Source: Eledone cirrhosa (lineage: Eukaryota). From it: a stretch of 64,000 bases of DNA. A program made the translations under genes and the position numbers. Below, piece after piece: positions 3,201-52,321 of the stretch. Position 1 is the stretch's first letter; every line of letters starts with the position of its first letter. The stretch spans positions 76,322,001 through 76,386,000 of the forward strand of contig OZ024746.1 of assembly GCA_964016885.1 (NCBI GenBank), given 5' to 3'. The notes under the pieces are model-generated. The model saw nothing but the letters and a program-made list of their open reading frames with translations. It was not told where the DNA came from and did not search any database.

Positions 3201-6200
3201 CTTCCTAACACCAACCACATTTACAGTGTGGGGCTGGGAGGTTTTTACCGTGTTGCCTACACGGCCACATTTACAGCGTGGACTGTGTGTTTTTTTGTCG
3301 TGACACCTACATGTCAGACCATGACAACCTTTCTAACCCATTCAAGCATGGAAAATGGAAATAAAATATAGCGGAAATCTTTTCATCTGTGTCAAACAAC
3401 CCTGAGCACCTGTTTGAATTCCATGTGTCTAACACACGTGGGCATGCCTACAAAGTCAAAAAACAGCACAGCTCGCATGACTTTTGGAAACATTTTTTCA
3501 CACTCAGAGTTGCTGAAGCATGGAACAAACTACCTGCATCAGTTGTTAGCTGCCGAGACACTGCATCCTTTAAAACCTCCATGCTTCTTGAAATTCGCCA
3601 ACACTACACCTGAAATCCCCCTCCATACACATGCACACATGTATTTCATGACCCATACACTGTTCACTTTCCTGACATTTGTACATTATTCTATGTACTA
3701 TACATACACCTTTGACGAGTTGTACACAATAATTTCATTATTTTTTTTGGTTATAAAGATATGACAACCTCTCTATAATGCTGGTGCCATAATAAAAAGC
3801 ACTCAGTAGAGCATGGGAGTTTATGTGAGATGCAGACCCCTAGCCCATCTGAGAACTCCACAAAATACTGACTTGTTCTGTGACAATCTGTCCAACTCCT
3901 GCTAACAGGAAAAAAAGGCATTAAATGATGATAGTGATGGACAACTTAGAACAAACAGTTTTGTATCAAGGACAGTTTCAGGTTATTTGGTATCAGAAAG
4001 GTTAAACTAGTATCAAAAGTATCATAAATTCAACTTACCAACAGATTACATCTACTCAGAGCTTTAACTTATATGTTTTATTTAAATGTTTTCTTTTGTT
4101 TGTTTGCCAGGTGTGGTAATGGAGCTGTGGTCTGTCACTGGGATACTTTAATGTTAGTTATTGGACCAGATAAAAACCATATTTCATATCCTTTTCATGT
4201 CCATATTTCTGATGAAATAAGCTCTATTTTCATTAATTTATGCAGAAAAGAATTTTGAGGGATTTACTAAAATTATTTCATCACTATCTGGTGCTGTGTG
4301 GAAGTCATCTACAATGTCAGTTTCGACAGCACTGGCTGGCAACAGGTGAAGTCCCTGTGAGATTCGGTGGCCTTGGCCTCCAATCTGCATCAGATCTGGC
4401 ACAGACAGCCTACCTCTCCTCAATCACGTCCAGTGGCATTTTCATCAGCAAGGTTCTCAACAGGACTGCAGAATCTGGTGTGACCCAAGAACTGGAGCAA
4501 GCTCTGGCCAACTGGACCAGCAAAGGCTTCTCTGTCTGCCAGTATACAAATGTTCAACATAACTAGAACAAAATCAACTGCATGTCTACTTTCAGGTGGA
4601 TCGAGTCTAGATTGGACCAACACTGCCTCGCCTGCCTCCATTCTGCCTCGCAACCAAATAGCTGCACGTGGCTCAATTCAGTGCCTTCCTCATCAACTGG
4701 TACCCTTTTTGGTGGCAAGTGCACTCGCAATGGAGTAACCCAAAGCTTCAGCCTCCTCGTGTTTGAGTCACATAAATGCCTTTGTGGAGCTGTTGTCGAT
4801 GAGTTTAGCCTGCACCCATATCATGCCGCCAGAGTGCAGACCGGTTCCCCCAACATGCCACTCTCAATGACATGATAAGAAGGAGCCTCGACGCAGCTGG
4901 CTTCTCCTCACAACTGGAGCAGAAGGCATTGACCATGGTGTTGGTAAATGATCCGATGGAATTACCCTCTTCCTTTTCAAAGGAGGTTAATCCCCCATCT
5001 GGGACACGACATGCTGTGACATGTTTTCCGCTTCTAACTTAATCACCTCAGCCACAAACTCCAGTACCAGGCTCACAATGCCACTTCCTCTTTGCACCGA
5101 TCACTGTTGAGACCTCAGACGTCTTCAGACCCTAAACAGCTGACCTCCTCCGTAAAATTGGATCGATAGCAGCTTGTCTAAGGAAGGAGCCCCGTGAGGT
5201 GGGATGGCTATTGCAGCGTTTGTCATGGTCCATTGTTTGCAGAAATGCCTTTGCCATTTTGTCCATGGGTTGCAGCCAAAACACCACTCTGACCTAGGTG
5301 TAGAGTCTGTTACCCTCTCCGCTTCCCCCTTTCTTTCTTCTTTTGTTGTTCTAGTAGTCCTTGCTCTTAACTCATAGTTCTTGTACAAAATTATGTTGGA
5401 AAATTTCAATTTAGATATGAATCCTTTAAGATGGGTAGTTTTGTTTCCATCTACCTAATTTCACACAGAAGGTATTCATCAACCTGAAGCTATGGTAAAT
5501 GACACTTGCCCAAGATGCCATGCTCTGGGATTGAGCCCAAAACCTAATGATTGCAAAACAAACTTCTTAACCATTCAGCCATTTTTCATCCACAGTTTTA
5601 AGATAATAAATTCTTACAGTGGTGTATCATTTCTCCTTAACTCGGATTACCTACATGCTTGATGGTCCCGTTTATCTTGTTGAAGAAGTGGATGGAGTTA
5701 GAATTATTGGCAATATGCAACATGAATTCTTAGAGAAAGTTCCAGGTAATTATCTAAATTTTTAAAACTATTTCATTACCATATTTCTAATGGCATACAC
5801 CAGCTTTCAATTAGTTATTGAAGAATTTGGCAAGATTTTCTAAAGTTATTATTTCATTATTAAGATAGTATTAGTAATATAACTTATCAAAGGGTTTTTA
5901 TATTCGATTATATTGAGAGATTTTAATTTGAATTGGGTCGCTTTAAAATGGGTCGTTTTGTTTCATAGAACCAGAACTAGTTTTAGTTGGGTTGATATCA
6001 AAACGGTTAAATAGGTGGATTTTTAATTGTTTCTTCAATACATTCTTGATAATTTCTAAATAATATCAATAAATAAACAGCAATTGCAATTTGAAAAAAA
6101 TAGTCACCACAATGCAGATAACTATAATAATAGTTGAATAAATTGGGGTCCTCTGGAGATGGATAAAAGGGAATAGATACTCCTGTGGAGGAATCAAACC

Positions 6201-9200
6201 ACACATCTATCATATGCCAGGCAGGCATTTTTAACCATTATACTAAAAGGTCATTGACTGCTAATTACCAAAGTTTTAGAAGTTTAAATGGTAGCTAGAA
6301 GTAAGTCAACCAATCTTGTTTATAATTTGCAATGATTTTCTGTTCTCAGATGCGACATTAGATGTCTACAAAATCCTGTCTTTTGCTCCGGGTGCCATGT
6401 TACGGCAAGCTTCTAATGAATACCAAGTGAGTTACTGAAATATTTCAGTGTTATTACAGTATTTCTTTCTAATTGCTGGAGTTTATTTAGTTGTTGTTGG
6501 TTTTTCTTGAATGAACGAAAATGGGAGAGGAAGACAAACAATTATTTGCAGAAGATGATAGGATTAGAGCCAGTAATTAATGTTGGGTCATATATTGAGG
6601 AAGGATGAAGATGACTGGGTGTGAGGAGTGATGGGAATAGAGCTAGTGATAAATGCTGTGAAGAGAAATGGAATGAGATGGTTGGGTCATGTGTTGAGGA
6701 AGGATTAAAGTGACTTGGTGGGAGGAATAACAACAGTGATGAATGTTTTAATAATGAAATTATTGTGTACAGTGCTCAGGTGCACTACAACTCATCAAAG
6801 GTGCATGTATAGTACATAGAATAATGTACAAATGTCAGGAAAATAAACAGTGTATGAGTCATGATATAATAACAATAACAATAATGAAATATTGTGCACA
6901 GTGCCCAGGTGCACCACAACCCATCAAAAAAGTGCATGTACAGTACATAGGGCAATGCACAAACATCAGTAAAATGAACAGTGCACACATGTGTGCATGT
7001 GTATGGAAGGGGCACATCAGGTGTAGTTTTGGCGTATTTCGGGAAGCATGAGTGTCTTAAAGGATGCAGTGTCTCGGCAGCTAACAATTGACGCAGGCAG
7101 TTTGTTCCATGTTTCAGCAACTCTGAGCGTGAAAAAATGTCTGCGAAAGTCATGGGAGCTGTGCTGTTTTCTTATCTTGTAGGCATGTCCACGTGTGTTA
7201 GACACATGGAGATCAAAGAGGCGCTCAGGGTTGCAGTTGGCGAGATGGTTAAAAACTTTGTGGGTATTCACCAAGTCCACTGCCAGACGTTGGAGCTTCA
7301 ATGAATCCATGCCCAGGGAAGCAAGGCGTTCAGAGTATGGTAGGTGTCTGATGGAGGGTATGCGCTTGGTTGCACGTCTCTGAACAGTTTCCAGGAGGTC
7401 AATGTTCCGAGCAAGATAGGGGTTCCAGACTGATGATGCGAATTCCAAGTGTGGTCGCACCATAGCTGTATACAGTTTTAAATAGATGGCTGGAGAGCGG
7501 CTAACAAAGGTCTTGCTGAGTGATGCCAAGACACCCTCGGCCTTCTTGACAATCTTAGAGACATGCTTTGTCCAATGCAAATCGTTGCTGACAGTAATGC
7601 CTAGGTCACGTTCACAAGAGGACTTTTTGATGTCAGTGTTGTGGAGGGAGTATGTGGACGCTGGATTTTTCCTTCCAAAATGCATGGTGGTACACTTGTC
7701 CACAGCCAGCTTCAGTTGCCAGTCTGTGATCCATTGCTGCATTGTGTCCAGGTCTGATTGTAGGAAAGAGTTGTAAATTTCAGGATCAGTCCTTTTGATT
7801 TCAAGGTACAGCTTGATGTCATCTGCATATTTTAGTACCGTGGCATTCTGTAAGTTGGCATCTATGTCATTAATATATGCCACAAACAAAAGAGGACCAA
7901 GAACAGATCCCTGTGGTACACCAGATGACATCTCATATGGTGAAGAATGCTGTCCTAGAACCGTGACTACTTCCCTTCGGCTGAGAATGAAGGATTTCAG
8001 CCAGTCGAAAAGATCATCCCTCACACCCATTGCAAAGAGTTTTGCCATAAGTCTTTTGTGTGGCACAGAATTAAAAGCCTTAGCAAAGTCAAGGTAAACA
8101 ACATCCACCCATGAGCCGCTGTCAGTGATCCGGGTGATGTCCTCAAGGAACTCGATAAGCTGATCACAGCAGCTGGAGTTAGGGATAAATCCAAACTGTG
8201 ATGGCCGGATGAGGCTGTGAGAGCTCCAGAAGTTCCAAAGTGTTTCTTTGACACAGGATTCCATCAGTTTGGCCATACAGCTAGTAAGACTGACTGGACG
8301 ATAGTTGACAGGTGACATGCGGTTGCCCTTTTTGAACAGGGGAATGACACTGGCAGTTTTCCACTGCTCCGGAGTAGCACCATTGCTGAGACAGTATTGA
8401 AAGAAAAAAGAAAGCTGGCGCAAAAGGAAATCCCCGCCACGTTTGAGAAGCAGGTATGTCACACCATCAAGACCAGGGGAGGCATAGTTGCGCTTATTCT
8501 TAAGGTGACGTCGCAACATTGCAGGTGTAAATTCCATAGTTGTTATGGAATTTGATGTTAGAGATGGTGGAGATGGTACATTCTGGTTTTCAACAGTAAA
8601 AATACTTGCATAGCACTCAGCAATGAGTTCTGCGCATTCCTTGGGATCGTCAGTGATCTGGCTTGTGTGGGGATTGCGAAGAGGACCAACTGGAGAGTGA
8701 GGTCTCTGCTTTGAATGAACATATTTCCAGAACACGTTACTGTCAGGATTGGTTGCGATGCACTGTTCAAATTCAAGCACTGCCTTCTTTGTCACTTGCT
8801 TGAGATGGTTAGAAGATTTATTCCGCTTTTTTCTGTTGGCATCTGATCTATGCAGTTTATATTCCCGTTCAGCGTTCCGACGTTCTTTCCTGGCAAGTCG
8901 GACTGCTGAAGTTTCCCAGATTGCACTTTTGGGGTGGTTATTTTTCCGCTTCCGTGGCACTGATGCTGCACACGCTATCCATATTGAGTCCAGGATGCTC
9001 TGGAGTATAGAGTTCACATCTCCAGAGTTATACATCTCATGCCAGTTTGGGCGCTGTAGCTCAGTGCAGTACAAGTTCCAATCCGCCCTCTTCCAATCAA
9101 AGCAAGCAGATTGGAGATGGCTCTGGTTTTTGTTGCTGCCCTCAAGTGCCAGATTGGCAATGATCATAGCATGATCAGAGTCGCCTAGAGGTTCCTCAGT

Positions 9201-12200
9201 AGTACAACTGATAACCACTTCAGGAGTAGTGGTGAAGATCAGGTCCAAAGTGTTGTCACCTCTTGTTGGAGAGGTGACTACTTGTGACCAGTTTGAGTCC
9301 AGCACTAGTTCAAGGAAATCGTTTGCACCCTGTGGCCAACGAAAGGTTTCCCAATCGATCTCAGGATGATTGAAGTCACCTGCAATAAACACATAAGTGG
9401 CTGTTTTCTTGGCAGCAACTCTGAGGATATCGCAAAGCTGTGTGTCCTGATGGTAGTTTGGGGGGCGATAAACAACACCAAGCAGAAGTGTTGACATGGT
9501 CATACGTATGTCACAGAAAAAAACTTCTTCCTGTGATTCGTTCAAATCAACGCAAGGAATTACCGAAAAGTTTGAACGAACGTAGACCATCACACCACCA
9601 CCACGGCGGTTAATGCGGAAAAGGTTGTACCCAGTAATGGTGAAAACCCCATCACAGAGTAAGGAATGTGCCCATGTTTCCGTGACTGTGATGAAGTCAG
9701 GGTCGATGCTTCTGACGTAGGATTCGAACAGATGTATCTTGTTGCATAAACTGCGAGCATTTAAGGACAACAATTTGTACCCTGCTCGCAGTCTATGATG
9801 GTGTGTAGAGGGTGGCAGGTTGTTCTGGTTTAGTTTCCCAGAGTTGTAGCAGTTTTTACATTGCCAGTTATTGTGGGTAGATCACACTCAGACCAGCTGG
9901 TATCTCTCTTCCACGTTTCACCCGCCTTGACAAACCTCCAGATCTGCCCATCATCACGCAGACTGAAACTTTCATCTTGTGCTGAGTTCCGATTCAAGGA
10001 GGCTGCAGCACGTAGTTTTGGACGTACATGGGGTGGTAGGCCTGGGCGTGTTCGGAAGGTAATCCGATTTTCACGCCCAGCTTTAGCAGAGGCCAGATGA
10101 TATAAGGTTGCCTCTGCGGGGTCCGAGAAAGACAGCCTGATGAGTCTGGGTTTTGGACCAGGTCGACCAAGGCGGAGGGCACCCTTTGGGGGAACACAGC
10201 CTAGGTCTTTGGCCGAGCTGGCAGCAAATGCCTGAAGATCGGCCTTGTCCTCTGGTACCCCAATGGCAATCACTTCATGGGTAGCAGATTCCGCAGTCTT
10301 TTCAGTCTTTCCAGCAAGAGGTACAGGGAGATTCTTTAGCAAGGCATTCCGATAAGACCCCTCATTGTGGGGTCCTACCCGAATGCTTGCCTCTATTCCT
10401 GCAACTTCCCTTCTCAGAGCAGAAATCATTAGTTGCAGTTCCGCAAAATCTGTACTGGTCGGTTGTTGTTGTTGTTGTTGTTGCTGCTGCTGCTGTCGTT
10501 GTTGGTGATGATGTTCCTCCACGGGAATGGCAGGGGAGGACACAGTCGCAGGTTGTTGCTGTTGTTGTTGTTGGTGATGATGATGTTCCTCCACGGGAAT
10601 GGCAGGGGAGGACACAGTCGCAGGTTGTTGCTGTTGTTGTTGTTGGTGATGATGATGTTCCTCCACGGGAATGGTAGGGGAAGACACAGTCACCAGTTGT
10701 TGGTGTCGAGATGTACTGGGAGTGGAAGACATGGGTTGTTGTTGTTTCTGATGTTCTCCCACAGGAATAACAGTAGAAGCCAGTGTCATAGGTTTTTGCC
10801 GTTGTTCAGTAACAGTGGTAGAGGAAGACACAGTCATTGGTTTTTGTTGTTGTTGTTGTTTTTCAATAACATTAATAACATTCGTGGAGGCAGGCACACA
10901 GGCCAGACACTGAAAGGACCAGGATTTTAGCTGGACCATCTCCCATATTCCATCCATCATAGCATTATGGTGTCTCTTTTTTTGGCCTGGGATCCTCCGG
11001 AAGCCTGTGGCGCATTGAAGGCAGACAGAGATGCGACAGGTTCCACATTCGACCCAGCGATTACGGAACGAGTTTTCGGGTTCCGCACAGATATGGCAGA
11101 TGTGATTTTCTGGGCAATGTTCTATCTTGGGACATCGGCCGGTTTTGTCGCATATTTCATCGATGGATATCACCATGGCAATTTTGTTATTTCTACCCAT
11201 CCGTAGAAAAACACAGAATGTAAACAATATAGGTTTAGCGCACTTGATTACGATAGAAATAAAATGTCTGTTTTTTTGTGTATTTTGTTTCCGTTTTCCT
11301 AAATGTTGTGTGTGTACAGAAGAGTCTGAATTACATTACATGTAAACAAATAAATATGCTGCGTAAGTTAAATGAAACGTACTGTAGAAGGCAGTTGTTT
11401 ATTAACAGCGAAATAAGGTTTTTTTTTGTTTTTTTTTCCCCTGATACTGCTTCTTTATAGTAAACTTTCAGTAATATTTTTTTTTCCAAATTATTAACTT
11501 TCAGCTGCTAGTATATATATATATAATTAAAAGGTGTATGTGGGTTAGAAGCGAGGTCAATGTTAAGAAATATTTTACCAATGTAAATTGGTAAAATTGG
11601 CCGGTATAGTGTCTCACACGAAATAGTGTGGTTTCTTTTCACGTGTGTGTATATGCATATGGTATGTATCTGTATATAAATCTGTGTATATTGTTGTTTA
11701 TATGTTTTGTGGAGTACTTACTGCGATCCTTAAGGGACGTAGTGATTTGTTTTGTTTTTTTTTCCTTTTTTCCCCGTCCATGTCCACACGTGGTTTGTTG
11801 GCGAAAATCAAGTCAAATTATATATACTTCGTTAAGATAATTCTATCTTGAAACTGGTACTAGTTGTCAGGGAACAGTGAAAGTAATTGTGATAATGAAT
11901 ATTGTAATCCATCTGACATGTGTTTAAAGGGCAGTTTTTGGTGAAAATATTATATTTTGTTCGGTCAAGACGTGGTCAAGCGACCTTCCTTGTCGCCATG
12001 TTAACTTGAAGAGAAATAGAATGATGTGGTTGAGTCGTATTGAGGAAGGCTGAAAGTGACAGTAAGATCAGTAAAGGGAATAAGCCAGTGATGAATGTTG
12101 TGAAGAGAAATGTTGATATCTGTTAAAAATTATAGATATAAAACTTAGTAAATTGTGCTTTGTACATGCATTAGTTTTTACTGTAAAGTTTTATATTTAT

Positions 12201-28908: not shown

Positions 28909-29445
28909 ATGCAACCAAACAAAAACCCTCCATAAGGCATCTGCCATACTCTGAATGCTTTGCTTCCCTGGGCATGGATACATTAAAGCTCTGACATCTG
29001 GCAACTGACTTGGTAAACACCCACAAGAATATTAATTATCTTTCCAACAACAACCTGAGCACCTTTTTGAAATCCATGTGTCTAACACCCATGGACATGC
29101 CTACAAAATCAGAAAACAGTACAGCTCCCATGACTTTTGGAAAAACTTTTTCATGCTCAGAGTTGTTGAAGCATGGAACAAACTACCTGCATCAGTTGTT
29201 AGCTATTGGGACACTACATCCTTCAAAACTTCCATGCTTCCCAAAATTTGCCAACACTACACCTGATATTCTCCCTCCATACACACACACGCATGTGTGT
29301 GTCTGTGTGTATCATGACTCATATACTGTTCACTTTCCTGACATTTGTACATTATTCTATGTACTATATATGCACCTTTGATGAGTTGTAGTGCACCTGA
29401 GCACTGTACACAATCATTTTCATTATTACTATTCTTATTATTATT
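28909..29445 (+). mobile_element. Older 5'-truncated CR1-group LINE fragment
   Basis: Diverged match to 35410-36060, with stops; single 3'UTR unit. Confidence 0.9.
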
Positions 29446-30484: not shown

Positions 30485-31670
30485 ATAACTTTCTTTTTAT
30501 TTGCCACCAGGGCGTCAAAGAGTGGGACAAGTACAATGGGGGGAGTTTACATAAAAAGGCGTCCTCAATAAGGAGGGGGCAATAACAAAATATAAAAATA
30601 TAAGATATAAAATATAACAAAATCCTCAATAGTGAGGAGGCGTCTTGGGAGGTCGCACACACCCCCGAAAAAGTGTGCAACCCTTCTCCTCAGGAGCAGA
30701 GAGAGAGGGTGCTCCCTTGATCTTTCATCTTTCTCACCTACAGTCTGATGTAGAGTGAAGGCCCATTCACACGGGCCATTCTCGCCACTTTCACCCATCT
30801 TTCATAAAAACGGCTGGGGTGCAGCACCTCTCTGTCCATCCTGATCCTTCTTCCGAAATGATATCGGAAGAAATGGACCAGTTGTTGGCCAGAGAGAAAG
30901 GTGTCTGATCTCAGTGCTTTCAGACGCATCCACCATACAACCTCTTTCACAATGGCTATTACGCACAGAAACACCGCCTCTCCTTCGTTTTTGAAGAGGG
31001 GAGGCGGCTTGATCGTTACAATAGACTCGGTGGTCAACTGGATCAGTCCCACCCGTGACAGCAGTCGTTCGACATAGCCCCACAGATCGGCAATGCGCGT
31101 GCAACGGTTTCCTCGTCGCACCCGCATCTGGGACATCTTTTTCGAGGGGTCCCTACCCAGGCGCCCATGTCTGTAGAGCCTTTCTCGAATGGGCAGAGCC
31201 CCTCGGTAGCACTGCCAGGCCAGGGACCTCTGGAATTTATCCATTGGTCTCGGGCTGAATGTCCTACCGAACAGGTTGGCCAGTTCGTTTTCCTCCATGC
31301 CTAGGGCTGCTCCGAGGGTGTCGTCGCACCTGCTAACCACCAGCCCTCTATAGAATGACGAGGTGGATTCTCCACTGACAGCCGGGTCCGCCTGCCAAAG
31401 AGCCGTGAGCACCTGGGCAGTTTTCTCGGTCTTTGTTTGACCCAGGATTGCAGCTCGGTGAGCGAGACGAGTCTGGGAAAGGCTTGCCTCACAAACGGGG
31501 CCCACACCGGTTGACCGATGAGGAATACCTGGAGGTGCTGTAGCCTTAATGCGTGTTTACGCATCATCAGCCACGGCATCCCCAGCCCTCCTTTCGAAGG
31601 GTGTTGACAGCAGATGGATCTCCTCACCATAGGAGCTGCTTCTTCCAAAGGAATTGGAAGAGTGCGCGCA
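30485..31670 (-). mobile_element. L1/Tx1-group LINE 3' fragment (post-RT domain, zf-RVT-like region, 3'UTR), frameshifted
   Basis: RRSICCQHPSKGGLGMP, LAWQCYRGALPIRERL, WGYVERLL, KEVVWWMRLK. Confidence 0.8.
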
Positions 31671-32235
31671 GATAGATAGATAAGTAGATAACTGTTGCTG
31701 TACCAACTACCAGAGAATGGGTATGCCTTGTCAACTCTGAGACAAGTAAGGAGGAAGATATAGAAACACATACATGTTCAAATTACCACTTCCCAAACAA
31801 ATCTAGCACAAAGTGGTTGTCTCATTTCCAAATTGAAGGATGAGTATTTAAACTTTATTTTATTCAGAGTTAAGGCTCTATTGATTTTTCCCTGGATTTC
31901 ACAAAATTCTATGGATAAATCTATGTCTTGATTTTTTTTAAATTGAGTTTGAATTATTTTCCCACATCTTACATTAATTATTTTCCATTTTGACGTTATA
32001 GTCACTTATATATTCACGCTCACAATAATTTCTATACTTTCATTTATATATATATATATACAGGGTGTCTCAAAAAATGTATAGCTGTATGATGAGGTCA
32101 TAGCTATTACATATATAACAGCGACTATAAATAAACAAAGTTAATTTTAACCTGTTGACTTACACTTCTTGTTTATATATATATATATAACATCATCATC
32201 ACCAACAACAACAACAACAGCAACAACCTGCGACT

Positions 32236-32946
32236 GTGTCCTCCCCTGCCATTCCCGTGGAGGAACATCATCATCACCAACAACAACAGCAGCAGCAGCA
32301 ACAACAACAACAACCGACCAGTACAGATTTTGCGGAACTGCAACTAATGATTTCTGCTCTGAGAAGGGAAGTTGCAGGAATAGAGGCAAGCATTCGGGTA
32401 GGACCCCACAATGAGGGGTCTTATCGGAATGCCTTGCTAAAGAATCTCCCTGTACCTCTTGCTGAAAAGACTGAAAAGACTGCGGAATCTGCTACCCATG
32501 AAGTGATTGCCATTGGGGTACCAGAGGACAAGGCTGGTCTTCAGGCATTTGCTGCCAGCTCAGCCAAAGACCTAGGCTGTGTTCCCCCAAAGGGTGCCCT
32601 CCGCCTTGGTCGACCTGGTCCAAAACCCAGACTCATCAGGCTGTCTTTCTCGGACCCCGCAGAGGCAACCTCATATCATCTGGCCTCTGCTAAAGCTGGG
32701 CGTGAAAATCGGATTACCTTCCGAACACGCCCAGGCCTACCACCCCATGTACGTCCAAAACTACGTGCTGCAGCTTCCTTGAATCGGAACTCAGCACAAG
32801 ATGAAAGTTTCAGTCTGCGTGATGATGGGCAGATCTGGAGGTTTGTCAAGGCTGGTGAAACGTGGAAGAGAGATACCAGCTGGTCTGAGTGTGATCTACC
32901 CACAATAACTGGCAATGTAAAAACTGCTACAACTCTGGGAAACTAA
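32236..32946 (+). pseudogene. C-terminal half of LINE ORF1 (5'-truncated, no genuine start)
   Basis: Matches the C-terminal part of ORF 9830-11227. Confidence 0.88.
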
Positions 32947-33002
32947 ACCAGAACAACCTGTCACCCTCTACACACCATCATAAACTGCGAGCAGGGTACA
33001 AA

Positions 33003-35768
33003 TTGTTGTCCTTAAATGCTCGCAGTTTATGCAACAAGATACATCTGTTCGAATCCTATGTCAGAAGCATCGACCCTGACTTCATCACAGTCACGGAAAC
33101 ATGGGCACATTCCTTACTCTGTGATGGGGTTTTCACCATTACTGGGTACAACCTTTTCCGCAAGGACCACATTAACCGCCGTGGTGGTGGTGTGATGGTC
33201 TACGTTCGTTCAAACTTTTCGGTAATTCCTTGCGTTGATTTGAACGAATCACAGGAAGAAGTTTTTTTCTGTGACATACGTATGACCATGTCAACACTTC
33301 TGCTTGGTGTTGTTTATCGCCCCCCAAACTACCATCAGGACACACAGCTTTGCGATATCCTCAGAGTTGCTGCCAAGAAAACAGCCACTTATGTGTTTAT
33401 TGCAGGTGACTTCAATCATCCTGAGATCGATTGGGAAACCTTTCGTTGGCCACAGGGTGCAAACGATTTCCTTGAACTAGTGCTGGACTCAAACTGGTCA
33501 CAAGTAGTCACCTCTCCAACAAGAGGTGACAACACTTTGGACCTGATCTTCACCACTACTCCTGAAGTGGTTATCAGTTGTACTACTGAGGAACCTCTAG
33601 GCGACTCTGATCATGCTATGATCATTGCCAATCTGGCACTTGAGGGCAGCAACAAAAACCAGAGCCATCTCCAATCTGCTTGCTTTGATTGGAAGAGGGC
33701 GGATTGGAACTTGTACTGCACTGAGCTACAGCGCCCAAACTGGCATGAGATGTATAACTCTGGAGATGTGAACTCTATACTCCAGAGCATCCTGGACTCA
33801 ATATGGATAGCGTGTGCAGCATCAGTGCCACGGAAGCGGAAAAATAACCACCCCAAAAGTTCAATCTGGGAAACTTCAGCGGTCCGACTTGCCAGGAAAG
33901 AACGTCGGAACGCTGAACGGGAATATAAACTGCATAGATTAGATGCCAACAGAAAAAAGCGGAATAAATCTTCTAACCATCTCAAGCAAGTGACAAAGAA
34001 GGCAGTGCTTGAATTTGAACAGTGCATCGCAACCAATCCTGACAGTAAGGTGTTCTGGAAATATGTTCATTCAAAGCAGAGACCTCACTCTCCAGTTGGT
34101 CCTCTTCGCAATCCCCACACAAGCCAGATCACTGACGATCCCAAGGAATGCGCAGAACTCATTGCTGAGTGCTATGCAAGTATTTTTACTGTTGAAAACC
34201 AGAATGTACCATCTTCACCATCTCTAACATCAAATTCCATAACAACTATGGAATTTACACCTGCAATGTTGCGACGTCACCTTAAGAACAAGCGCAACTA
34301 TGCCTCCCCTGGTCTTGATGGTGTGACATACCTGCTTCTCAAACGTGGCGGGGATTTCCTTTTGCGCCAGCTTTCTTTTTTCTTTCAATACTGTCTCAGC
34401 AATGGTGCTACTCCGGAGCAGTGGAAAACTGCCAGTGTCATTCCCCTGTTCAAAAAGGGCAACCGCATGTCACCTGTCAACTATCGTCCAGTCAGTCTTA
34501 CTAGCTGTATGGCCAAACTGATGGAATCCTGTGTCAGAGAAACACTTTGGAACTTCTGGAGCTCTCACAGCCTCATCCGGCCCTCACAGTTTGGATTTAT
34601 CCCTAACTCCAGCTGCTGTGATCAGCTTATCGAGTTCCTTGAGGACATCACCCGGATCACTGACAGCGGCTCATGGGTGGATGTTGTTTACCTTGACTTT
34701 GCTAAGGCTTTTAATTCTGTGCCACACAAAAGACTTTTGGCAAAACTCTCTGCAATGGGTGTGAGGGATGATCTTTTCGACTGGCTGAAATCCTTCATTC
34801 TCAGCCGAAAGGAAGTAGTCACAGTTCTAGGACAGCATTCTTCACCATATGAGATGTCATCTGGTGTACCACAGGGATCTGTTCTTGGTCCTCTTTTGTT
34901 TGTGGCATATATTAATGACATAGATGCCAACTTACAGAATGCCACGGTACTAAAATATGCAGATGACATCAAGCTGTACCTTGAAATCAAAAGGACTGAT
35001 CCTGAAATTTACAACTCTTTCCTACAATCAGACCTGGACACAATGCAGCAATGGATCACAGACTGGCAACTGAAGCTGGCTGTGGACAAGTGTACCACCA
35101 TGCATTTTGGAAGGAAAAATCCAGCGTCCACATACTCCCTCCACAACACTGACATCAAAAAGTCCTCTTGTGAACGTGACCTGGGCATTACTGTCAGCAA
35201 CGATTTGCATTGGACAAAGCATGTCTCTAAGATTGTCAAGAAGGCCGAGGGTGTCTTGGCATCACTCAGCAAGACCTTTGTTAGCCGCTCTCCAGCCATC
35301 TATTTAAAACTGTATACAGCTATGGAGCGACCACACTTGGAATTCGCATCATCAGTCTGGAACCTCTATCTTGCTCGGAACATTGACCTCCTGGAAACTG
35401 TTCAGAGACGTGCAACCAAGCGCATACCCTCCATCAGACACCTACCATACTCTGAACGCCTTGCTTCCCTGGGCATGGATTCATTGAAGCTCCGACGTCT
35501 GGCAATGGACTTGGTGAATACCCACATAGTTTTTAACCATCTCGCCAACTGCAACCCTGAGCGCCTCTTTGATCTCCATGTGTCTAACACACGTGGACAT
35601 GCCTACAAGATAAGAAAACAGCACAGCTCCCATGACTTTCGCAGACATTTTTTCACGCTCAGAGTTGCTGAAGCATGGAACAAACTGCCTGCGTCAATTG
35701 TTAGCTGCCGAGACACTGCATCCTTTAAGACACTCATGCTTCCCGAAATACGCCAAAACTACACCTGA
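33003..35768 (+). CDS. LINE ORF2: APE endonuclease plus reverse transcriptase, open, 921 aa (the listed start is TTG)
   Basis: Same endonuclease and RT motifs as copy 1; retains FRKDH. Confidence 0.94.
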   Translation: MLSLNARSLCNKIHLFESYVRSIDPDFITVTETWAHSLLCDGVFTITGYNLFRKDHINRRGGGVMVYVRSNFSVIPCVDLNESQEEVFFCDIRMTMSTLLLGVVYRPPNYHQDTQLCDILRVAAKKTATYVFIAGDFNHPEIDWETFRWPQGANDFLELVLDSNWSQVVTSPTRGDNTLDLIFTTTPEVVISCTTEEPLGDSDHAMIIANLALEGSNKNQSHLQSACFDWKRADWNLYCTELQRPNWHEMYNSGDVNSILQSILDSIWIACAASVPRKRKNNHPKSSIWETSAVRLARKERRNAEREYKLHRLDANRKKRNKSSNHLKQVTKKAVLEFEQCIATNPDSKVFWKYVHSKQRPHSPVGPLRNPHTSQITDDPKECAELIAECYASIFTVENQNVPSSPSLTSNSITTMEFTPAMLRRHLKNKRNYASPGLDGVTYLLLKRGGDFLLRQLSFFFQYCLSNGATPEQWKTASVIPLFKKGNRMSPVNYRPVSLTSCMAKLMESCVRETLWNFWSSHSLIRPSQFGFIPNSSCCDQLIEFLEDITRITDSGSWVDVVYLDFAKAFNSVPHKRLLAKLSAMGVRDDLFDWLKSFILSRKEVVTVLGQHSSPYEMSSGVPQGSVLGPLLFVAYINDIDANLQNATVLKYADDIKLYLEIKRTDPEIYNSFLQSDLDTMQQWITDWQLKLAVDKCTTMHFGRKNPASTYSLHNTDIKKSSCERDLGITVSNDLHWTKHVSKIVKKAEGVLASLSKTFVSRSPAIYLKLYTAMERPHLEFASSVWNLYLARNIDLLETVQRRATKRIPSIRHLPYSERLASLGMDSLKLRRLAMDLVNTHIVFNHLANCNPERLFDLHVSNTRGHAYKIRKQHSSHDFRRHFFTLRVAEAWNKLPASIVSCRDTASFKTLMLPEIRQNYT

Positions 35769-36041
35769 TGTACCCCTTCCATACACATGCACACATGTGT
35801 GTATCATGACTCGTGCACTGTTCATTTTACTGATGTTTGTGCATTGCCCTATGTACTGTACATGCACTTTTTTGATGAGTTGTGGTGCACCTGGGCACTG
35901 TACACAATATTTCATTATTGTTATTGTTATTATATCATGACTCATACACTGTTCATTTTCCTGACATTTGTACATTATTCTATGTACTATACATGCACTT
36001 TTGATGAGTTGTAGTGCACCTGAGCACTGTACACAATAATT

Positions 36042-36072
<31 letters not shown>

Positions 36073-51772: not shown

Positions 51773-52131
51773 TTTGATCTCCATGTGTCTAACACACGTG
51801 GACATGTCTACAAAGTTAGAAAACAACACAGCTCCCATGACTTTCGGAAACATTTTTTTCACGCTCAGAGTTGCTGAAGCATGGAACAAACTGCCTGCGT
51901 CAGTTGTTAGCTGCCGAGACACTGCTTCCTTTAAAACCCTCATGCTTCCCGAAATTCGCCAAAACTACACCTGATCTACCCCTTCCGTACACATGCACAC
52001 ATGTGTATATCATGACTCATGCACTGTTCATTTTCTTGACGTTTGTACATTACCCTATGTACTATACATACACTTTTGATGAGTTGTAGTGCACCTGAAC
52101 ACTGTACACAATATTTTCATTATTATTATTC
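51773..52131 (+). mobile_element. 5'-truncated CR1-group LINE fragment, single 3'UTR unit
   Basis: [22 protein letters not shown]; (ATT)n tail. Confidence 0.9.
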
Positions 52132-52133
52132 AT

Positions 52134-52321
52134 ATTGGCAGTATCGGTAGAGAGTCGGACACCAGGCTTTGAAGCATAGAGTTACGTCCCTTTATGATCT
52201 GAGTTCAAATCCCGCCGAGGTTAACTTTGCCTTTCATCCTTACTGGGTCGATAAAATAAAGTACCAGTAATGCACTGGAATAATTGCTGGCCTTGTGCCA
52301 AAAGTAGAAACAATTATTATT
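52134..52321 (+). mobile_element. tRNA-derived SINE (family A) abutting the LINE tail
   Basis: TTGGCAGTATCGGTAGAG..GAGTTCAAATCCCGCCGAGG..AAACAATTATTAT. Confidence 0.88.

Follow-up and report, generated by a model that had tools for sequence, protein, structure and literature searches.

ADAR-type A-to-G hypermutation is known from avian retroviruses. Integrated proviruses of BLV carry A>G clusters that have been ascribed to ADAR, and HTLV-2 and STLV-3 are cited as further cases in the same report (PMC8025556). Among cytidine deaminases, APOBEC has left G>A marks in vertebrate LTR elements, which were reported absent from the 19 invertebrates screened (PMC4866542). At the RNA level, hyper-editing has been described in octopus, and in chicken the 3' ends of 5'-truncated CR1 copies are heavily edited when paired with inverted neighbours (PMC5625713). 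Squid repeats are also edited in RNA, a defence role being called unexplored there (PMC9068888). For human elements, two reports describe reporter RNA of L1 and new Alu inserts totalling 52 kb as free of editing (PMC5224506, PMC3415434), and according to a review it is 'not yet determined' whether ADAR editing plays a part in the evolution of subfamilies (PMC4982230). LINEs and SINEs have been found to gain the 3' end of another element, and 3' recognition can be stringent (PMC3747384, PMC13174262, PMC4476161). Active CR1 families are reported in O. vulgaris in a study whose available text does not mention editing (PMC13282606), and the available text of PMC8586724 does not mention retrotransposition. 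Among the best-ranked papers of the mostly open-access literature, at the level of main texts, we found no description of clusters of the ADAR type in LINE copies of a genome. Here we describe an octopod LINE subfamily whose A>G cluster, judging from its sequence pattern, probably arose when RNA of the LINE, edited by ADAR, was copied back into germline DNA and gave rise to the subfamily.

The DNA analysed is a 64-kb stretch (the window) of a 3.0-Gb genome. Copy A of the LINE (32189..36065, + strand) is 5'-truncated inside ORF1 and carries a double 3' end. Its ORF2 (32895..35768, +) is a 957-aa open frame with an AP-type endonuclease (PF03372/PF14529) and a reverse transcriptase (PF00078), RVT_1 being the sole family assigned to the latter region. 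Copy B, of the same subfamily (6749..11335, - strand), has an upstream open frame (9830-11335, -), an open ORF2 (7017-9881, -, 954 aa) and again a double 3' end; its part at 6749-10587 (-) is 98.2% identical to copy A over 3.9 kb. The earlier note had described the double end in one LINE and had overlooked copy B; the duplication itself is real and, since both copies have it, the structure is a subfamily trait. The element is a non-LTR retrotransposon, an APE-type LINE with AP endonuclease and reverse transcriptase in ORF2, 5'-truncated copies and a simple-repeat tail, which we take to be CR1-like from its ORF2 C-terminus and tail. The ORF1 N-terminus, in the upstream frame of copy B, is Cys/His-rich by eye, and no Pfam PHD match was found in it at E<=1. 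ORF1 also contains a 72-nt tandem repeat of Gln/His-rich units (10480-10706, with 3.2 copies in copy B, and 32189-32310). Compared to copy A, copy B lacks 9 bp in frame in the endonuclease region (window 33161-33169). Just upstream of copy A lies a 272-aa open frame (30738-31556, -) of another, probably degraded retroelement. The window also holds three 3' fragments of the family: an older TT-type fragment (3392..3724, +), which is inverted relative to copy B and lies 3.0 kb downstream of it, an older TT-type single-unit fragment (28910..29441, +), which serves as an outgroup with A alleles, and a CC-type single-unit fragment (51773..52136, +), which is the unedited sister form of the proximal unit.

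The double end of copy A was detected by TRF as a 131-nt tandem. Its proximal unit (35801..35932, +) is the element's own end and is CC-type. The distal unit (35933..36063, +) is without edits, matches the older TT-type and has the ATT tail at its end. A global alignment of 35802-35932 with 35933-36063 gave 14 substitutions. In ten of them (35813, 35815, 35835, 35841, 35846, 35858, 35884, 35894, 35920 and 35926) the distal unit has A and the proximal unit G, and none has the reverse; the other four (distal/proximal) are two T/C, one C/A and one C/T, and there are small indels in addition. This agrees with the one-directional A/G cluster, 10 of about 14, that had been found by manual alignment. 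It also holds that the three single-unit copies, at 3645, 29310 and 52008, have A at most of these sites, the copy at 52008 already having G at 35815 and 35835. For the proximal-unit subfamily as a whole, the A>G sites are 35801, 35813, 35841, 35846, 35858, 35864, 35884, 35894, 35920 and 35926. Decay of CpG was rejected as their cause, accounting for 35834 only. In copy B, the double end has extra A>G at the equivalents of 35772, 35878 and 35902. In contigs from runs X1 and X2, which come from other organisms, joints skip the proximal unit. Among the sequencing runs listed as containing this stretch, none is recorded as RNA.

Throughout the genome the 3' unit comes in three forms, namely TT-type, CC-type and a G-rich CC-type. 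The TT-type is older, with 751 exact matches to one upstream pattern and about 86% ORF2 identity; for the CC-type, 3,076 matches were counted irrespective of the A/G state. The G-rich form has 1,463 matches, on both strands and with distinct flanks, and is a young LINE subfamily of about 1,460 copies. Singleton divergence falls from 2.8% in the TT-type (12 copies) to 1.0% in the CC-type (30 copies) and 0.57% in the G-form (37 copies). Since the proximal unit belongs to the CC-type and the distal one to the TT-type, the double end is chimeric, with parts from two subfamilies. The proposal that the terminus had duplicated itself, with a fresh copy of the element's own end appended, has to be given up: the distal unit has the TT-type diagnostics instead, and these rule out self-duplication of the element's own end.

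In order to determine the direction of change, we compared columns of 53 G-form, 57 CC-type A-form and 30 TT-type copies, polarity being taken from column tallies of real copies against outgroup copies. Alleles common to the G-form and absent from the other two groups comprise, in the 3' unit, 10 A>G at 29 A sites, no T>C at 40 T sites, no G>A at 14 sites, two C>T and one C>A. In ORF2 (34400-35768), where 349 sites are A, the same allele class is made up of 11 A>G and 6 T>C changes together with 23 G>A and 14 C>T. The A>G excess of the unit is significant both compared to T>C in the unit (p=6e-5) and compared to A>G in ORF2 (p=3e-7), the latter contrast being rough because ORF2 is under selection and the rule of n of at least 2 admits recurrent CpG changes. 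Both outgroup subfamilies support A as the older base, as had been thought likely. They reject G as the older base at all sites except 35864, which is G in the TT-type too and whose origin is ambiguous; the five other sites of the burst described below are unambiguous.

For relative timing, six late A-form single-unit copies with the ORF2 markers of the G lineage were set against the nine earliest G-form copies. There were no fixed differences over about 33850-35768 (about 1.9 kb of ORF2) and six differences within 54 nt, all of them A>G (35841, 35846, 35858, 35864, 35884 and 35894). This founding burst (35841..35894, +) altered 6 of the 15 As in its span and none of the 39 other bases (p=2e-4). 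The ORF2 tree has poor resolution near the burst. An earlier, balanced TT-to-CC step accounts for 35815 and 35835, and later sublineages added 35813, 35878, 35902, 35914, 35920 and 35926, with 35920 and 35926 polymorphic in the subfamily. The ten A>G differences of copy A had been read as a record of editing events; two of the ten sites are older than the founding burst, and 35920 and 35926 came later.

We then looked at other copies of the family by a forced-site search that for each of three sites demanded an A>G, or for each of three context-mirrored sites a T>C, and left other changes of the same type free. For A>G and T>C alike, every match with at least two same-type changes was retrieved, plus some single ones. 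A locus was called clustered if it had at least four changes of one type and at least twice as many as all other changes, a criterion that was fixed after the data had been seen. The totals were equal (168 forced-A>G and 164 forced-T>C matches), which indicates that ordinary private mutation is symmetric. Clustered loci made up 8 of the 168 A>G matches and 0 of the 164 T>C matches (p=0.007). For one palindromic site, a further change of the same type occurred in 5/8 (A>G) against 1/18 (T>C) matches (p=0.0045). Taken by itself, the replicate of this mirrored comparison in the older subfamily did not reach significance (7/39 against 3/38, p=0.31). The count of A>G against T>C for which the earlier note had called therefore has a divided outcome, with symmetry among single private changes and a signal only in the rare clusters and in the lineage-founding changes.

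The largest cluster, at L177, has 17 A>G, no T>C and 4 other changes in 279 nt and extends into ORF2. L216 and L257 each have 11 A>G and no T>C, L257 having come from an additional search, and L011 has 9, 9 and 8 A>G in its three units. The counts are 7 for L174 and L208, 6 for L194 and L217, 5 for L178 and 4 for L172, which is below the cluster criterion yet included in the pooled set. The 11 units from these ten loci together have 112 private changes, of which 87 are A>G and 4 T>C. The A>G changes are always on the sense strand of the element, while the loci lie five on each genome strand. L174 and L216 have four changes in common, so they are not fully independent. Inside the cluster spans, 27% of the As are altered. 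The three-unit end at L011/L267 (G000:C23:~16980800-16981260) has an edited distal unit that was itself duplicated, its units 2 and 3 having seven A>G in common. At L244 (G000:C2:224303500-224305531), which had been chosen as a T>C control, A>G is present at 35748, 35758 and 35761, sites altered in clustered copies, and this locus may be an older edited insert.

Such clusters are not a general property of the family. None was found in about 130 unselected copies, and G>A clusters, the signature of APOBEC, were found neither in 85 units nor in unselected copies. Among the first 100 edited-form matches listed, none had a further A>G at 5 open sites; together with the symmetric singletons this rejects hyper-editing of each copy as a rule. 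A pooled test outside the search span gave no separation (A>G of 3.8% around A>G-selected loci and 4.1% around T>C-selected controls) and is uninformative because old control copies differ from the small outgroup set. In mid-ORF2 there were two forced-A>G matches, neither with a second A>G, a result that says little without a mirror control.

Neighbour context was counted without the forced sites. By 5' neighbour, the altered As are 30/56 for T, 15/32 for A, 9/44 for G and 10/107 for C, that is 45/88 for T/A against 19/151 for C/G (p=2e-10). By 3' neighbour they are 11/20 for G, 24/89 for T, 23/99 for C and 6/31 for A, and the share for 3' G exceeds that for the other 3' neighbours (53/219, p=0.006). 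The ADAR preference is reported as 5' U/A and 3' G (PMC11276115), and the clusters agree with it, the 3' G being the preference of the human ADARs. They fit less well with invertebrate editing as described in PMC5625713, where 5' G is strongly depleted and the 3' side leans to A, in contrast to 3' G here. A 5' G is altered less often than 5' U/A (9/44 against 45/88, p=7e-4), but as a share of the edits it is not significantly reduced (9/64 against 35/175, p=0.35), and the least-used 5' neighbour is C, not G. Of the context that had been predicted for ADAR, the 5' preference for T, here as U/A, was recovered; the 3' G enrichment fits the human enzymes but departs from the invertebrate lean, and 5' G is reduced relative to U/A but not as a share of edits. 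Sites of the founding burst were altered again in independent copies more often than other As (15/36 against 14/125, p=1e-4). All clusters lie inside 35663-35909, even in copies that span 550 nt, 1.7 kb and 3.3 kb, in searches that were aimed at the 3' end.

The main rival to editing is error-prone synthesis of the second (sense) strand at insertion, either by a polymerase-eta-like enzyme or by the LINE reverse transcriptase through T:dG wobble. We consider it unlikely, yet it does predict sense-strand-specific, clustered changes that are tied to insertion, and the 5' A/T preference (45/88 against 19/151) and the weak depletion of 5' G fit it. Polymerase eta makes T:dG errors at rates of a few percent. 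The 27% of As altered here, over up to about 200 nt and with few other errors, counts against such an enzyme, which predicts neither the 3' G enrichment nor clusters that keep to the final ~250 nt of long copies. If low dATP were responsible, T>C from the first strand would be expected as well, whereas 4 T>C were seen against 87 A>G. The 5' A/T (WA) motif by itself is common to ADAR and polymerase eta (PMC11817618).

Less probable again is a change made after insertion, by RNA-templated repair or cDNA gene conversion with edited RNA, or by ADAR acting on DNA in RNA:DNA hybrids. A route of this kind has been argued for cancer genomes (PMC11817618), and there are mosaic copies in the family (L054 and L076) that would suit it. 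On the other hand, the cluster of L177 takes up most of the 279-nt truncated insert and stops at its edges, the 281 upstream flank columns having no A>G and the 342 downstream ones two. Moreover, transcription of host genes would affect elements in both orientations and would leave T>C clusters, of which the mirrored search found none.

It appears very improbable that the pattern came from ordinary mutation and from drift of the source elements, in a neutral UTR of alternating purines and pyrimidines, or that the unit was imported from a diverged subfamily that has escaped notice. It is true that single changes are symmetric and that source-lineage changes in ORF2 lean to purine transitions, albeit in both directions. 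The founding changes, however, are six of six A>G while ORF2 is unchanged, the edited proximal unit retains all CC-type diagnostics, contrary to an import, and a symmetric process cannot yield one copy with 17 A>G and no T>C; the private clusters contradict it. Although systematic mismatch clusters, mainly G>A, are known from old trace data (PMC2873906), a sequencing or assembly artefact can be practically dismissed given 1,463 occurrences on both strands with distinct flanks and a contig from another public sequencing run that covers 35500-36028 with 2 differences.

Taking the clusters, their strand, context and extent, the relative timing and the chimeric end as established, we return to the retrotransposition of edited LINE RNA. 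That proposal of the earlier note keeps the support of strand, clustering, ADAR-like context, recurrence and an octopod ADAR host, and loses the per-change asymmetry and the fresh end of its own. The steps would be as follows. A read-through LINE transcript would pair with a 3' fragment of its own family that is 5'-truncated and lies inverted, and within the last ~250 nt ADAR would deaminate many As. Inosine would be read as G by the reverse transcriptase of the LINE, which would insert the copy. One such rare edited copy would have kept an intact ORF2 and become a source element, and at about the same time this source would have gained the 3' end of the older subfamily. Later rounds would have added further A>G in the unit that was now internal.

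The adenosine-deaminase domain (PF02137) has matches at four loci of the genome. One PF02137 exon has matches among human ADAR2 structures and shares 95% identity with ADAR2 of Octopus vulgaris, and by this homology the host octopod encodes ADAR2. As for the substrate, the UTR folds no better than its shuffles (z about -1.1), and copy B has no long inverted repeat inside it, only one 16-nt inverted pair; an intramolecular UTR fold was rejected as editing substrate on these two grounds. Read-through RNA of copy B together with the inverted fragment 3.0 kb downstream is predicted to form a 331-bp duplex of -525 kcal/mol, compared to about -150 kcal/mol with a shuffled partner. No inverted fragment was found within 3 kb at 20 ordinary loci (0/20), which is in line with the rarity of clusters. 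Editing is described as rare in sense-antisense duplexes (PMC13445718), and this favours read-through over antisense pairing. We infer that the duplex substrate of the clustered copies may have been read-through pairing with an inverted fragment. At L192, two 3' ends of the family lie tail to tail in opposite orientation, which is a ready-made hairpin.

Among the collected loci, of which a few overlapping ones were counted twice, a second unit follows the CC-type unit in 0 of 70 with zero or one marker edit and in 71 of 77 with two or three. Of 53 G-form copies, 51 end on a TT-type unit, including two collapsed hybrids, a 13-unit array and one copy interrupted by a SINE, and 2 (L053 and L076) end on an edited unit. 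The terminal hairpin is weak in all three forms (z of -1.4 to -1.7) and the edits do not weaken it (predicted -12.8 kcal/mol edited, -11.5 unedited). Terminal units edited at 35875-35907 were inserted at L194, L217, L257 and L011, L194 covering the edits at 35884/35894. The claim that an unedited end was needed for recognition by ORF2 thus has no clear support, since the predicted hairpin survives the edits, 2/53 copies end on an edited unit and edited terminal units did insert. The association fits rescue and a founder effect equally well. The added end may have come from a template switch, from insertion into the tail, or from landing inside an older end followed by read-through, and these are indistinguishable here.

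Several copies show what can become of a double end. L059, L108 and L172 are collapsed hybrids, with an edited 5' half and the 3' half of the older subfamily in one unit, and they offer a way for edits into single-unit lineages. In L010 (G000:C27:21918507-21921745), a single proximal unit precedes 12 further arrayed 3' units whose alleles are mixed, which suggests repeated slippage or unequal crossing-over of the double end. L116 and L015 have a SINE-like repeat placed precisely within the ATT linker that separates the two units; the same repeat often follows ATT tails, which suggests that it targets them.

RNA editing normally vanishes with the transcript. If the preferred reading is true, it enters inherited DNA by way of a LINE, in the most heavily editing animal group, ADAR meets retrotransposition-competent RNA in the germline or the early embryo, and a subfamily can go back to a single edited transcript. 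The phenomenon is of modest scale: inserts with clusters are rare, at well under 1% of copies, and are in repeat DNA, not in genes. A larger scenario is tentative and in our view rather doubtful. According to it, octopod ADAR would be a recurrent heritable mutagen of LINEs; hyper-edited RNA would have lost its 3' recognition, been rescued by the end of the older subfamily and become the youngest active lineage; genomes would hold a datable fossil record of germline editing; and editing would drive the succession of subfamilies. Because the strand-mirrored cluster test needs only genome assemblies, the question can be tested across cephalopods and other CR1-rich genomes.

Several known systems share part of this pattern. 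With the APOBEC editing of LTR elements (PMC4866542, PMC2873906) it has in common strand-biased, clustered and motif-biased changes that are fixed in genomic copies, with the complementary change as control; the difference is that APOBEC, a cytidine deaminase, makes G>A changes on cDNA of vertebrate LTR elements, whereas the change here is A>G in an invertebrate LINE. The RNA hyper-editing of chicken CR1 and octopus repeats (PMC5625713, PMC9068888) has the same proposed substrate, 5'-truncated LINE 3' ends with inverted neighbours, but consists of mismatches between RNA and DNA, while the mark here is genomic and inherited. Human L1 and Alu are likewise non-LTR retrotransposons on which ADAR1 acts, there without editing of inserts as far as those reports describe (PMC5224506, PMC3415434, PMC4982230). 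As in the LINEs and SINEs that gain a 3' end (PMC3747384), the end is chimeric and comes from a related element; unlike in other described gains, the end passed from one subfamily to another of the same family, at about the time of an A>G burst. The closest likeness is to the BLV proviruses (PMC8025556), which also have short windows of at least seven sense-strand A>G near the 3' end of integrated DNA, rarely, with ADAR recognised from the pattern alone. BLV and its relatives are somatic exogenous LTR viruses in which such changes are described as minor, dead-end variation, in contrast to a germline non-LTR element with about 1,460 descendants. The mechanism proposed here would thus be akin to ADAR hypermutation of proviruses, and what would be new is that it struck a germline LINE and that one edited copy founded a large subfamily.
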